Positions 52,276-56,866 of a DNA stretch of 64,000 nucleotides are shown piece after piece. The translations under genes were made by a program, and so were the position numbers. Source of the stretch: Candidatus Omnitrophota bacterium (lineage in GTDB: Bacteria > Omnitrophota > Gorgyraeia > Zapsychrales > Zapsychraceae); the NCBI GenBank assembly GCA_021108075.1, contig JAIORP010000090.1, positions 79,828 through 143,827 on the forward strand, written 5' to 3'. Position 1 is the stretch's first letter. Every line of letters begins with the position of its first letter. The notes beneath the pieces are model-generated. The model made no database searches and was not told the origin of the DNA. It was given only the letters and a program-made list of their open reading frames with translations.

Positions 52276-52815
52276 ATGACACAAAGGGCGTTTTTAGTTA
52301 TGGGGATGGTGTTGTTTGGTTTAGCCGTATCCTTTGATAAACAGGTGCATGCGGCGGGAGTTGTTGCCAGACAACAGCAGATGCAAAAAAAGCAGATTGA
52401 GCAGCAAAGGAAACAAAATTCCGTTCGGGAATCTGTCCGGCAACAGCCTATTGATAGGGAAGGTGAAAGCGAAATATTAGATCTGGCGGCCATCTGGCTG
52501 GAGCTTGAATCGAGCAGTGAGGTTTGGATTCGAATGATGGATCAGGGTCCCAAAGAGATTACCGTGGAAAAGTATTTGGAGCAGTTTCGGCAAAAAGGGA
52601 TTCGAATTCAAAAATCAGCCGCGCATTATGTGCAGTTGCTTGATTCCATGGGGCGACAGAATCCAGGTTTATTGCAGCAACCGTTCAGTCCATTATTACG
52701 TTTTATTGTCATTATGGAATATGATTTTGATAATGGGATGGATAAAGATGCCTTGGCCCATAAAGTATTAGGTGAGAAAATTTATCAGCAGAACAAGCAA
52801 CGGCTGGGGTTTTAG
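52276..52815 (+). CDS. Secreted hypothetical protein (Gln/Arg-rich N-terminal region)
   Basis: Signal peptide. No recognisable domain. Confidence 0.4.
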   Translation: MTQRAFLVMGMVLFGLAVSFDKQVHAAGVVARQQQMQKKQIEQQRKQNSVRESVRQQPIDREGESEILDLAAIWLELESSSEVWIRMMDQGPKEITVEKYLEQFRQKGIRIQKSAAHYVQLLDSMGRQNPGLLQQPFSPLLRFIVIMEYDFDNGMDKDALAHKVLGEKIYQQNKQRLGF

Positions 52816-52931: not shown

Positions 52932-54287
52932 ATGAAATGGATTCCTTTGGTGATGTGTTTTGTTTTGGTTTCAGGAGGTATCTGTGAGGCTAAAGTTGAT
53001 CTCGTGAGTCTTCCGAGTCGCGATAGTGTGCAGTTAACGATTTATAATTCCGCAGATTTAACACTGGCAAAAGAAAGCCGGTCCCTTACCCTGAAAGAAG
53101 GTTTCAATGATCTTCAATTCTCCTGGGCGAATACCTTGATTGATCCAACGAGCTTAGAGCTTGTTCCATTAACAAATGCTGATCGAATTGACGTTCAAGC
53201 ACTAACCTATCCTCCGAGAGTTAAAAATTTGGGATTATGGAACATTGACAGTGGCCTGAGCGGACAAATTCCTGTTGAAATTAGCTATTTGACGAGTGGT
53301 TTAAGTTGGCGTGCTTTTTATCTTGGAACATTAACACCGGATGAAAAGGAAATGAGGTTAAAGGGATATGTCCGCGTTCTTAATAATAGTGGCGAAGATT
53401 ATGAAAATGCTCAAGTCCGTCTGATTGTCGGCAAGGTTCACATCATTGATCAGATAGCCCAATTGGCTCAAAGGCAATATCCGTATGAACGTCCGGGAAT
53501 TTATCCTGCGGCACAACCGGAGGTGCACTCAAAACGAAGTCGCCAGGATGTGCGCGTGATGAAGTCCGTCATGATGGGAGAGGGTATAGCTTTTGGCTCT
53601 GTCGCCCCGATGGAGACCAAGGAGATTATTAAAGAAGGTTTGAGCGAATATTTTTTATATACGATTGAGGGCCGGGAAACCATTCTAAATGGATGGTCAA
53701 AGAGATTACCGAGCTTTGATGTCGCGAGCGTGCCAGTGGTTAATCTGTATAAATATGAAGAGGAGCGATACGGTTATCAGGTGATCCGTTTTTTAAGTTT
53801 TAAAAATGATGAGGATCACCTGTTGGGGGAAACACCGATTCCCGGAGGTTTATTAAAAGTATTTCGAAATGTTGATGCGGAGAATCATTTAAGCTATGAA
53901 GGACAAAGTGAATTCAAGTATATCCCGATTGACGAGGATGTTGAGCTGAATTTAGGTGCGGTGCAGAATATCGTTGTTGAACCCAAGCTGATGAATCTTA
54001 AAACGGAAAATTTTATGTTTGACCGTCATGGGAATATTAATGGATGGGATGAGGTCCGAACGTACAAAATGGAAGTGAAAAATACGCGTCAGGTTCCGGT
54101 TGAGGTTGAGATTAAACGGAATTTTAATGCTCTCAAATGGGATATCCACAATGAAGGTGCTGAGGTGAAATATGAAAAAATTGACGCCAATACAGTGAAA
54201 TACAAATTAGCGTTACAATCAAAAGAAAATAAAACGTTTCAATATACTCTACGGACATTTCATGGCCGTAGAGGAGACCACAAATAA
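52932..54287 (+). CDS. Secreted ~450-aa protein, paralog P1 of a 5-gene tandem family (possibly the DUF4139/DUF4140 'MuiA-like' family, unverified)
   Basis: Signal peptide, conserved N-terminal domain KVDLVSLPSRDSVQLTIYNSADLTL..., SYLTSGLSWRAFYLGTL, a variable central segment and a conserved C-terminus ending FHGRRGDHK. Confidence 0.7.
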   Translation: MKWIPLVMCFVLVSGGICEAKVDLVSLPSRDSVQLTIYNSADLTLAKESRSLTLKEGFNDLQFSWANTLIDPTSLELVPLTNADRIDVQALTYPPRVKNLGLWNIDSGLSGQIPVEISYLTSGLSWRAFYLGTLTPDEKEMRLKGYVRVLNNSGEDYENAQVRLIVGKVHIIDQIAQLAQRQYPYERPGIYPAAQPEVHSKRSRQDVRVMKSVMMGEGIAFGSVAPMETKEIIKEGLSEYFLYTIEGRETILNGWSKRLPSFDVASVPVVNLYKYEEERYGYQVIRFLSFKNDEDHLLGETPIPGGLLKVFRNVDAENHLSYEGQSEFKYIPIDEDVELNLGAVQNIVVEPKLMNLKTENFMFDRHGNINGWDEVRTYKMEVKNTRQVPVEVEIKRNFNALKWDIHNEGAEVKYEKIDANTVKYKLALQSKENKTFQYTLRTFHGRRGDHK

Positions 54288-54320: not shown

Positions 54321-55460
54321 ATGAAAAAAAATATGTATTTAAAAAGTGTCATCATGTTAAGTATGTTTTGTTTCTTGAGTTTGTCTGTGGCTGAGGCCCG
54401 GATCAAACTTGTGGCCCTTCCCAAGAGGGCGGACACCATCATCCGGTTGGACAATCCCCAATTTACATTAATAGAAGAAGAACGTGTGCTGACTTTACAA
54501 CAGGGATTAAACAAAGTTGATTTCTCCTGGAACGGTGTCAGTATTGATCCTGATTCGATCCGCATTGATATCCTGTCCCATTCCGACCAGGTCACACTTT
54601 TAAACGTGAGCTATCCGCCAAATGAGAATGCGCTTGTTTGGGAAATTAGCAGTGCCGGAGCGCGGGAAGAAAAGATCCGCGTCAGCTATTTGCTTTCCAA
54701 TATTGACCGATTGATCACATATAAATCCGTTGCTGATAAAGCGGAGACACAGGTCAACTTTAAGAGTCATCTCATTTTGAGGAATTTTTCAGGGGAAGAT
54801 TTTGCTAATGCGAAAGTGTTGCTTGATTATGGTGAATCCTTTGAGGAAGGCATCCGACACGAAGAAACAAAACAACTGCTGTTTCTTAAGGCTGGAACGG
54901 TTCCGATCGAAAAGGTATGGCAATGGGATTCCAAAAAACAAATTTGGGACCCGGAAGAAGTTGATCAAAATGTCGGGATTCCGGTCCATTACCGCATAAC
55001 AAACACAACGGACTCGAACTTAGGTCAGAACGCGTTATGGAATGGTAAAATGCGTGTTTTTCAATTGGATGGTCATGGCAGCACGATTCTGTTAGGCGAA
55101 GATGCTGTTGATTTAACTCCGGTCGGTGAAGATATGGAAGTTTATATCGGTGATAGCCGGGATTTGGTGGTGACGCAGCGTAAGATGGTCGACAAGCAGA
55201 CAAATATTCGGCGTAATACGAGTGGCCGCGTTGTTTTATATGATAACGAAGAGCAGGTAACGGCTAAAATTGAGAACTTCAAAGATACAAACGCGAAATT
55301 AAAAATGGTCCAACATATCCCTGGAGAATGGGATATGCATAGCTGCAATTTCGAATATAAGAAGGAGAACGCAAATACGATTGAATTTGAAATTGATGTG
55401 CCTGCGCAGGGTAAGGCGGAGCTTGTTATGCATTACTTTAGACGAAATATTCGCAATTAA
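54321..55460 (+). CDS. Secreted protein, paralog P2 (divergent, shorter, lacks variable insert)
   Basis: Same N-terminal pattern (RIKLVALPKRADTIIRL...VSYLLSNIDR...) and 379 aa. Confidence 0.6.
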   Translation: MKKNMYLKSVIMLSMFCFLSLSVAEARIKLVALPKRADTIIRLDNPQFTLIEEERVLTLQQGLNKVDFSWNGVSIDPDSIRIDILSHSDQVTLLNVSYPPNENALVWEISSAGAREEKIRVSYLLSNIDRLITYKSVADKAETQVNFKSHLILRNFSGEDFANAKVLLDYGESFEEGIRHEETKQLLFLKAGTVPIEKVWQWDSKKQIWDPEEVDQNVGIPVHYRITNTTDSNLGQNALWNGKMRVFQLDGHGSTILLGEDAVDLTPVGEDMEVYIGDSRDLVVTQRKMVDKQTNIRRNTSGRVVLYDNEEQVTAKIENFKDTNAKLKMVQHIPGEWDMHSCNFEYKKENANTIEFEIDVPAQGKAELVMHYFRRNIRN

Positions 55461-55473
55461 AGGAGGCCGGGCA

Positions 55474-56850
55474 ATGAAAGTGAAGCTTTTCTTTCTTGTT
55501 TTTCTGTTGGTGCCCGGTGTTTCCTTGGCCAAAGTTGATCTTGTGACGCTTCCTCAACGGGATCATGTTCAGTTGACGATTTACAATTCAGCGGACTTAA
55601 CACTTATCAAGGAGAGCCGTTCTTTAACCCTCAAAGAAGGATTTAACGATCTGCAGTTTTCTTGGGTCAACACATTAATCGATCCGACCAGTTTGGAAAT
55701 GCTGCCATTAGCCAACGCGGATCAAATTGATGTCCAATCCTTAACATACCCTCCCCTTTTAAAAAACGTGGGATTATGGCATATACGCAGCTCAGTGAGC
55801 GGTCAAGTCCCTTTTGAAATCAGTTACTTAACGAGTGGTCTCAGCTGGAGGGCGTTCTATTTAGGAACATTAGACCCTGATGAGCAGGAAATGCGTTTGC
55901 AGGGTTTTGTGCGCGTGCAGAACAACAGTGGGGAAGACTATGAAAAGGCTCAAGTTCGATTGATTGTCGGAACAGTGCATGTCATTGATCAGATTTCTTT
56001 TTTAGCTAACCGACAGCACCCCTACGGCTCGCCCGGTATTATTAATTTTGAGCGAGAGCATTGGGGGGGAGGCGAAGATTATGATGCCGATGCGTTGGAT
56101 ATGAAAGATGCGATCGATGAAACCTTTTATGCCCTGGCCGACGCTGAATCATTTAGAGAAGAAGGGGAAATGCGTACGCCGAAGAAAATCATCAAGGAAG
56201 GATTGAGCGAATATTTTTTATACACGATTGAAGGCCGCGAAACAGTTCCAAACGGATGGGCCAAACGCATGCCGAGTTTTGATGTTGAGAAAATACCTGT
56301 TGTCAACCTTTATAAATATGAAGAGGAACGTTATGGCTCGCAGGTCGTTCGTTTTTTGAGTTTTAAAAATGATGAAGACCATCAATTGGGAGAGACGCCT
56401 ATCCCGGGTGGCATGTTAAAAGTTTTTCGTCAAGTCGACCAGGAAAAACACTTGAGCTATGAGGGGCAAAGTGGCTTTAAATATATTCCTGTCGATGAAG
56501 AGGTCGAGTTGAATATGGGTGGCGTTCAGAATGTCATCGTCGAACCAACCCTGATGGATTATCAATCGGCAAACTATATGTTCGACCGGTATGGAAATAT
56601 TATCGGTTGGGATGAAATACGGGAATATAAGATTAAACTGAAAAACACCCGCCCGATTCCCGTCAAAGTTGAAATCAAAAGAAACATCCATAATTCGAAA
56701 TGGGCCATCCAAAATCAGGGCGATGTCGGCACTTATGAAAAAATTGATGCGGACACGGTTCAATACACGATTCATTTGACGGAACGGGAGAATAAAGAAA
56801 TTGTTTACGCCCTCACGACGTTTCATGGCCGTCGAGCGGATTATCAATGA
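55474..56850 (+). CDS. Secreted protein, paralog P3
   Basis: Start at the ATG after SD AGGAGG, MKVKLFFLVFLLVPGVSLAKVDLVTLPQRDHVQL... C-terminus TTFHGRRADYQ. Confidence 0.7.
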   Translation: MKVKLFFLVFLLVPGVSLAKVDLVTLPQRDHVQLTIYNSADLTLIKESRSLTLKEGFNDLQFSWVNTLIDPTSLEMLPLANADQIDVQSLTYPPLLKNVGLWHIRSSVSGQVPFEISYLTSGLSWRAFYLGTLDPDEQEMRLQGFVRVQNNSGEDYEKAQVRLIVGTVHVIDQISFLANRQHPYGSPGIINFEREHWGGGEDYDADALDMKDAIDETFYALADAESFREEGEMRTPKKIIKEGLSEYFLYTIEGRETVPNGWAKRMPSFDVEKIPVVNLYKYEEERYGSQVVRFLSFKNDEDHQLGETPIPGGMLKVFRQVDQEKHLSYEGQSGFKYIPVDEEVELNMGGVQNVIVEPTLMDYQSANYMFDRYGNIIGWDEIREYKIKLKNTRPIPVKVEIKRNIHNSKWAIQNQGDVGTYEKIDADTVQYTIHLTERENKEIVYALTTFHGRRADYQ

Positions 56851-56866
56851 GGATAAAGGATTTTTA

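Follow-up and report, generated by a model that had tools for sequence, protein, structure and literature searches.

Introduction

The closest described system to the one considered here is that of MuiA (PA1494) of Pseudomonas aeruginosa, which is transcribed by the extracytoplasmic function (ECF) sigma factor SbrI, under the anti-sigma factor SbrR, with envelope stress as the inducer (PMC10418997); overexpression of CtpA also induces SbrI and MuiA (PMC10418997). Our subject is an array of five tandem genes, P1 to P5 (52932-59611, + strand), in a 64,000-nucleotide (64-kb) stretch of DNA from a Candidatus Omnitrophota bacterium (assembly GCA_021108075.1, contig JAIORP010000090.1, positions 79,828 to 143,827; hereafter the window, from the first letter of which all positions are counted), and in particular a central block that differs between the encoded proteins as well as their C-terminal tails. 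As with MuiA, the proteins are probably secreted or periplasmic, and P1, P3, P4 and P5 pass the PF13598 (DUF4139) model; also shared is a link to an ECF sigma/anti-sigma pair, which in Pseudomonas consists in the transcription of muiA by SbrI and here in operon structure in most genomes. In contrast to MuiA, the proteins score only 26-40 bits (12-40 bits across all five) against the cut-off of 112.6 of TIGR02231, the mucoidy inhibitor MuiA family, and by these scores the five are related to that subfamily but are not members of it. Other differences are that here the anti-sigma factor itself bears a DUF4139 body, that 2-5 secreted paralogs are co-encoded, that the window is devoid of these regulators, and that the family is mainly limited to Planctomycetota and Verrucomicrobiota, with 60-70% identity across phyla. 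In the literature on DUF4139/PF13598, we found incidental mentions only.

Proteins with a variable middle are known from other settings. By an analogy from general knowledge, the block may be likened to the D2/D3 domains of flagellin and the bait region of alpha-2-macroglobulin, which likewise combine ultra-conserved flanks with an unconstrained or lineage-specific middle at a fixed site where large insertions are tolerated; unlike these, with which there is no homology, the block comprises about 40 probably disordered residues rather than a folded domain, and there is no filament or thioester machinery. The variable regions of diversity-generating retroelements (DGRs) share with the block a sharply bounded variable window inside a conserved protein, but here there is no reverse transcriptase (RT), template repeat or adenine-directed pattern, and orthologues conserve the block. 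The explanation that we consider probable is that the block is a disordered loop at a fixed site in a DUF4139 scaffold, evolving fast under purifying selection with no diversification machinery involved, and that the tail is the end of a beta-strand.

Results

An earlier reading of the window, made from the sequence alone (hereafter the sequence-only reading), had described flanks more than 70% identical around an essentially unrelated central segment of ~50 residues. Our alignment of P1, P3, P4 and P5 bears out this difference, with amino-acid identity of 0.70-0.82 in the flanks vs. 0.02-0.14 in the block. The peptides quoted in that reading are correct (the translation of 53487-53640 being ERPGIYPAAQPEVHSKRSRQDVRVMKSVMMGEGIAFGSVAPMETKEIIKEG), and its approximate nucleotide ranges come close to the exact limits of the blocks. 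Based on column entropy, the predicted local distance difference test (pLDDT) score and an orthologue, we place the P1 block at 53499..53618 (residues 190-229, IYPAAQPEVHSKRSRQDVRVMKSVMMGEGIAFGSVAPMET, net charge +1), with its counterparts, likewise on the + strand, at 56038..56181 in P3 (residues 189-236, acidic, net charge -11), 57431..57574 in P4 (residues 189-236, Gly-rich with 8 Gly, net charge 0) and 58823..58942 in P5 (residues 190-229, net charge +4), all being 40-48 residues in length. In global alignment, the scores of the block pairs in the window stayed at the level of shuffled sequences (z -0.5 to 2.0), with z of -1.5 to 2.8 for paralog pairs when the orthologue blocks were included. 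To call the blocks essentially unrelated is nevertheless a slight overstatement, as a short amphipathic motif aligns in mid-block (RVMKSVM in P1, LDMKDAI in P3, LKNEMML in P4) and coincides both with the weakly conserved basic and hydrophobic columns 208-217 of 120 homologues and with a low-confidence helix predicted at residues 204-215 in the AlphaFold model.

The same site is variable in homologues from other genomes. Among the 120 best homologues of P1, column entropy lies below 0.5 bit almost everywhere and climbs to 2.3-2.9 bits precisely in the stretch bounded by RQYPYGRPG and K(E)I.KEGLSEY; GRPG forms a conserved anchor on the left, and the right boundary (P1 position 230) is Lys or Arg in 120/120. 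The block persists in 114 representatives of 50%-identity clusters, where its median length is 37 residues (30-49 residues in 91 of them); Met (5.4-fold), Ala (4-fold) and Pro (2.8-fold) are over-represented in it, and aromatics, Asn and Thr under-represented. Large insertions were found at this very position in two homologues, namely a whole Laminin_G_3 domain exactly at the block site of P0255 (giving a block of 247 aa) and an S-layer homology (SLH) motif in P0375, while in P2-type proteins the two strands are joined directly and the excursion is missing.

The AlphaFold model of P1, run with a diverse alignment of 101 sequences, has a mean pLDDT of 88 and a predicted template modelling (pTM) score of 0.77, and replaces an earlier run with a shallow alignment (pLDDT 62) for which the fold search was uninformative. 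Its sole low-confidence part comprises residues 171-239 (pLDDT 47-68), between strands 157-166 and 241-244, with the weak helix at 204-215 lying within this excursion. As modelled, the protein is an all-beta scaffold, apparently non-enzymatic. Foldseek returned as best matches in the PDB the luminal domains of Ost1/ribophorin I (E 2e-7 to 5e-5, probability 0.91-1.0), followed by weaker matches to the M1-aminopeptidase N-domain and mu-homology domains; a sequence-level relative was not found in the PDB, where matches to collagenase and Ig-like beta domains reached only E >= 0.06. The model shares with the Ost1/ribophorin I luminal domain of the eukaryotic oligosaccharyltransferase an alignment over the whole length and a non-catalytic, all-beta multi-sandwich character, but the template modelling (TM) scores are 0.15-0.20, sequence identity is 8-10%, and Ost1 has, as far as tested, no equivalent variable loop; we treat the resemblance as a lead only, not as a classification.

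Syntenic orthologues of the array are found on two metagenome contigs, L001 with the order ClpB-tetratricopeptide repeat (TPR) gene-P1-P2 and L002 with P2-P3-P4-P5. Compared with these, the P1 block is 61% identical to its L001 orthologue, while in L002 the P3 block keeps its acidity (51%, z 16.9), the Gly-rich P4 block keeps GGKGGRE (50%, z 14.2) and the P5 block is 40% identical (z 11.5), with z of 11-23 over the orthologue block alignments and flanks 74-93% identical. The L001 assembly holds frameshift errors, as judged by a ClpB orthologue broken into four open reading frames (ORFs) and a P2 orthologue broken into two (L001:6133-8748). For P1 and P3, where the block's synonymous divergence (dS) was estimable at ~1.2-1.3, P4 and P5 being saturated, the ratio of non-synonymous to synonymous rates (dN/dS) in the block was 0.22 and 0.31, respectively, vs. 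0.04-0.09 in the flanks. On these rates, the block evolves several times faster than the scaffold, yet under purifying selection. Between the window paralogs, the flanks are saturated at synonymous sites (proportion of synonymous differences, pS, 0.74-0.90) while dN is only 0.12-0.22, and we conclude from this that the paralogs are ancient and held together by purifying selection rather than by gene conversion; the same saturation rules out recent duplication or gene conversion in the window. The term hypervariable in the sequence-only reading, taken as ongoing or programmed diversification, is not supported on these points: the paralogs are old, their blocks are retained in orthologues at 40-61% identity, and dN/dS is 0.22-0.31. 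The block is a fixed-site, length-constrained, low-complexity and low-confidence loop that is paralog-specific and conserved between orthologues.

Elsewhere, the family sits in a stereotyped operon which, in a survey of 80 loci, consists of an ECF sigma factor, a member of ~615 aa, a P2-type gene and then 1-3 P1-type genes (examples being L005, L029, L014, L035, L061 and ~35 other loci, e.g. L029:6276-8719). The sigma factor reaches the cut-offs of TIGR02937 and of the Pfam models for regions 2 and 4 of sigma-70. In the long members, an N-terminal HxxxCxxC (40/42) precedes a hydrophobic segment and a linker, after which comes a full DUF4139 body with 50-56% identity to P1; the sigma ORF ends <=150 nt upstream in 35/39 of them, and their N-terminal part weakly matches an NCBIfam anti-sigma model. 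The ~615-aa member is a zinc-type anti-sigma (ZAS) factor, with a member of the family as its periplasmic domain. Because the scaffold is the periplasmic domain of an anti-sigma factor in most genomes, the family probably belongs to an envelope-signalling/stress module. No homologue of the sigma factor or of the anti-sigma N-domain was found in the 64-kb window, which is not itself an ECF sigma/ZAS anti-sigma module with a DUF4139 sensor domain; together with three genomes labelled Opitutales (L003, L007 and L082), it represents a variant devoid of the sigma factor, with the order P1-P2-P1-P1(-P1). Two further observations concern other loci of the family. At L023:4467-9326, the usual position of the anti-sigma gene is taken by a 1620-aa ORF combining a flavin adenine dinucleotide (FAD)-dependent oxidoreductase, an F5/8 type C domain and a DUF4139 body, which may be a real fusion or an artefact of ORF calling or assembly; and 24/80 loci encode, immediately downstream of the array but on the other strand, a membrane protein of the DUF7544 family (Pfam E 4e-41; e.g. 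L029:11376-12338, - strand).

Block type goes with the place of a copy in the operon. Behind P2 there is usually a copy whose block is Pro/Ala/Met-rich (PAPM-rich) with RGR..ME as its core, and the copy after that one has a charged K/R-EMEK helix, these flavours being kept per position across orders; the blocks of the anti-sigma proteins are Gly-, acid- and aromatic-rich. Locus L082 (4.98-Mb genome; L082:8610-13947) contains three long paralogs with flank DNA 88-93% identical (dS 0.26-0.64), among which two pairs of blocks show no relationship (DNA identity 0.36-0.38), and L082, L007 and L003 carry the same block types at the same positions, with 63-92% identity. The blocks of position-3 and position-4 orthologues are 87-92% identical at a flank dS of 0.23-0.49, and flank dS between paralogs of these three loci, at 0.29-0.61, is barely above that between orthologues. 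Codon bias was discarded as a cause of the low flank dS, the effective number of codons (ENC) being an unremarkable 49-54. These data suggest that in this clade the flanks have been homogenised, probably by gene conversion, with the block spared and kept distinct; since the flanks appear homogenised while the blocks stayed distinct, we surmise that block identity matters.

This bears directly on the possibility that the block is a neutral spacer, i.e. a flexible bridge of ~40 residues between two strands, the sequence of which carries no information. Such a spacer would account for the low complexity, the conserved length (median 37), the low pLDDT, the lack of similarity between paralogs and the P2 type, which folds without any block. 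It accords poorly with dN/dS values well under 1 at a dS of ~1.2-1.3, with the 87-92% identity of the position-3 and position-4 orthologue blocks, with block flavours that remain distinct per operon position across orders, and with the unrelated blocks within flank DNA of 88-93% identity in L082, which suggest selection keeping the blocks distinct. On this evidence, we view a neutral spacer as rather unlikely.

If the block were instead an exposed epitope or receptor loop, subject to diversifying selection from phage, predators or a host in the manner of antigenic variation, one would expect the extreme divergence seen between copies and lineages of these probably secreted proteins, right beside an ultra-conserved scaffold. 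However, the gene-wide dN/dS of the block stays under 1 (0.2-0.3) wherever an orthologue pair allows an estimate, a result on which we rejected diversifying selection, and block types are stably inherited by operon position. A PADLOC search yielded no match to a defence family, and membership in an anti-phage defence family was rejected on that ground. We give this reading little credence.

ECF anti-sigma factors are commonly activated through periplasmic proteolysis, and we considered on this account that the block might be accessible to a protease, either as a linker excised on maturation, like the C-peptide of proinsulin, or as a site-1 or bait cleavage segment triggering degradation of the anti-sigma factor. 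A disordered loop in a compact beta fold, the invariant Lys/Arg at P1 position 230 with the conserved GRPG on the left, and the presence of the same kind of block in the anti-sigma versions all fit this reading, as does the response of SbrI and MuiA to CtpA overexpression (PMC10418997). Against it, no protease gene is conserved in the operon, and paralog-specific conservation, as observed, would be of no use to a block destined to be cut out and thrown away; a protease site therefore seems improbable to us as well.

As for the C-terminal tails, the sequence-only reading had noted GRR(G/A)D no more than 3 residues before the stop in four of the five copies and had proposed a sorting or recognition tag. 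The sequences are as quoted, the ending being FHGRRGDHK in P1 (54258..54287 with the stop, + strand), FHGRRADYQ in P3 (56821-56850), YHGRRGDVQ in P4 (58214-58243) and FQGRRGDGG in P5 (59582-59611), the latter three likewise including the stop on the + strand, and the orthologues in L001 and L002 keep this ending; P2 ends in HYFRRNIRN, P2-type proteins having their own basic tail, MHYHRRNVR. The proposed tag did not hold up. Among the 120 close homologues, only (H/Q)GxR is general (117/120), at a distance of 2-16 residues from the end, while GRR(G/A)D is found in 6/120, and P0243 and P0313 have an additional LamG domain downstream of the HG motif, which renders the motif internal. In the AlphaFold model, FQYTLRTFHG belongs to the last beta-strand (433-445), ending in HG, with the RRGD residues (446-449) at low confidence. 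Sorting signals of the PEP-CTERM, LPXTG, GlyGly-CTERM or type IX secretion system C-terminal domain (T9SS CTD) kind consist of a motif with a hydrophobic helix and a basic tail, or of a folded CTD, at a fixed C-terminal position, whereas here RR(G/A)D is followed by only 2-4 polar residues in a 9-residue tail that has no hydrophobic helix or basic anchor; NCBIfam sorting-signal models returned no match at E <= 0.1 for the five proteins. The conservation of RGD is likewise not that of a cell-adhesion motif, with 4/120 close homologues (two being the window's own proteins) and 0/150 representatives having it and RAD replacing it in P3 and in the P4 orthologue; we attribute RGD to chance, because the family consensus HG-x-R-x-(D/E) reads so when x is Gly. 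We therefore rejected both the sorting-tag and the RGD readings on the homologue statistics, the LamG-extended homologues and the null model search, and consider a C-terminal sorting, export or integrin-type tag most improbable, notwithstanding the shared ending of four copies and their orthologues. As modelled, the tail is where the last beta-strand ends, together with a conserved Arg, and it belongs to the fold.

The sequence-only reading had itself set a DGR aside for want of a reverse transcriptase nearby, and our searches agree. With the four block DNAs as queries (blastn, word size 7), no second copy was found in the 64-kb window, where only self matches and chance matches of <=39 nt were returned; an RT-like ORF was not found either in a crude scan, made without a full Pfam scan of the window ORFs, in which the sole YxDD match in ORFs of >250 aa lay in CarA. 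With neither template-like repeats nor an RT in the window, a DGR or cassette mechanism was ruled out, and programmed hypervariation at large, be it by DGR, cassette switching or gene conversion from silent copies, is despite the sharp variable window between conserved flanks effectively excluded, as is the sorting tag, the synonymous sites of the paralogs being saturated and orthologues sharing their blocks.

The array itself is compact, its intergenic gaps measuring 12-33 nt, with all genes on the + strand. P1 (52932..54287; 451 aa), P3 (55474..56850; 458 aa from ATG 55474), P4 (56867..58243; 458 aa from ATG 56867) and P5 (58256..59611; 451 aa) are long-type, probably secreted proteins of the DUF4139 family with the central block, 65-68% identical overall and scoring 54.0, 45.5, 37.8 and 48.3 bits, respectively, against PF13598 (gathering threshold 31.8 bits). 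P2 (54321..55460; 379 aa) is a divergent short-type paralog (~26% identity to P1 and the long paralogs) whose alignment has a gap over the block region, the whole excursion being missing; its PF13598 score of 18 bits is under the threshold, but a hidden Markov model (HMM) of P1-type homologues matches it at E 5e-38. Mechanical ORFs of P3 and P4 begin at an upstream TTG and overlap the preceding genes (55381-55473 and 56801-56866); we take the ATG codons as the true starts because the signal peptides align with homologues only from there. In alignments, all five proteins have signal-peptide-like N-termini with an n-h-c pattern, without a canonical lipobox, and the mature N-terminus A|KVDLV is conserved family-wide. 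A search with the family HMM found only these five family ORFs in the window. Between lnt and P1 lies a 179-aa ORF (52276-52815) with a signal-peptide-like start, a Gln-rich region and no family match, which we discarded as part of the system since neither the syntenic L001 nor any of the 80 loci has it; lnt is also missing in L001, where the TPR gene almost directly precedes the P1 orthologue. In a scan of the array for promoters and terminators, the counts equalled those of shuffled sequence and hence are uninformative. Over the window as a whole (1-64000), every ORF of >=150 aa in 1-47500 is on the + strand, as are the genes examined beyond, and all 2-kb bins have a positive GC skew (0.06-0.24), a strand bias unusually strict for 64 kb.

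P1 has >8000 homologue matches among clusters at 90% identity (long type), and the P2 short type forms its own conserved subfamily of ~378 aa, 65-72% identical, with 3430 matches. The best 120 homologues of P1 are all ~447 aa long and 64-70% identical to it (except P1 itself and an 86% orthologue), and come mainly from metagenome-assembled genomes (MAGs) of Planctomycetota (Sedimentisphaerales, Phycisphaerae), and a scan of genomes extended this range to Opitutales, Kiritimatiellales, Pontiellaceae and a few MAGs labelled Desulfobacterota. MAGs labelled Aegiribacteria, Thorarchaeota and Aminicenantes also include short contigs (L015, L065 and L075) with near-identical family genes (62-65% to P1), for which binning contamination is most likely, rather than true distribution.

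Discussion

We propose that the variable segment is a low-complexity, probably disordered surface excursion of 40-48 residues at one insertion-tolerant site, between beta-strands 157-166 and 241-244 (P1 numbering) of a secreted, all-beta DUF4139 protein. The five genes are ancient tandem paralogs in which the scaffold is under very strong purifying selection, while the excursion would be constrained mainly in its length, its Met/Ala/Pro-rich composition and a short central amphipathic helix. We surmise that it is because of these loose constraints that the non-synonymous rate of the excursion is ~3-8x that of the scaffold. Among the old paralogs all similarity between the blocks has been lost while orthologues still share theirs, with no need for diversification machinery. 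The loop may then act as a flexible tether, different in each paralog, from which a short helix or peptide makes contact with partners, and as such would give each near-identical copy of the scaffold its own specificity, a specificity-determining role that we infer.

Several points weigh against this proposal. The 40-61% identity between orthologue blocks could in part reflect a short divergence time, the block dS of P4 and P5 being saturated. The signalling context has been borrowed from other genomes, there being no sigma or anti-sigma gene in the window. The scores against the MuiA model TIGR02231 are far under the cut-off, and the likeness to Ost1, with its good E-value (2e-7) and low TM-scores (0.15-0.20), offers no functional guidance.

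A bolder version of this proposal, which we regard as quite unlikely, is that the blocks are tethered, paralog-specific recognition or bait peptides on an ultra-conserved periplasmic scaffold, which in most Planctomycetota and Verrucomicrobiota doubles as the sensor domain of a zinc-type anti-sigma factor, with the secreted paralogs of the operon serving as decoys or co-sensors that assemble with this domain. The repertoire of blocks would then set the response of an envelope-signalling pathway found throughout the Planctomycetes-Verrucomicrobia-Chlamydiae (PVC) group, and selection would keep the blocks distinct despite homogenisation of the flanks.

The array comprises new members of a catalogued domain family, and both the block and the tail have an ordinary evolutionary explanation. 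The finding chiefly removes a false lead, since neither a hypervariation mechanism nor a new sorting tag is involved, only a fast-evolving loop and the end of a strand. The family is exceptionally conserved across Planctomycetota and Verrucomicrobiota, always in multiple copies and usually linked to an ECF sigma/anti-sigma pair, and the more interesting by-product of this analysis is an uncharacterised PVC-wide operon of ECF sigma factor, anti-sigma factor and secreted paralogs, in which the paralog-specific loops are the obvious experimental handle on what distinguishes the copies.

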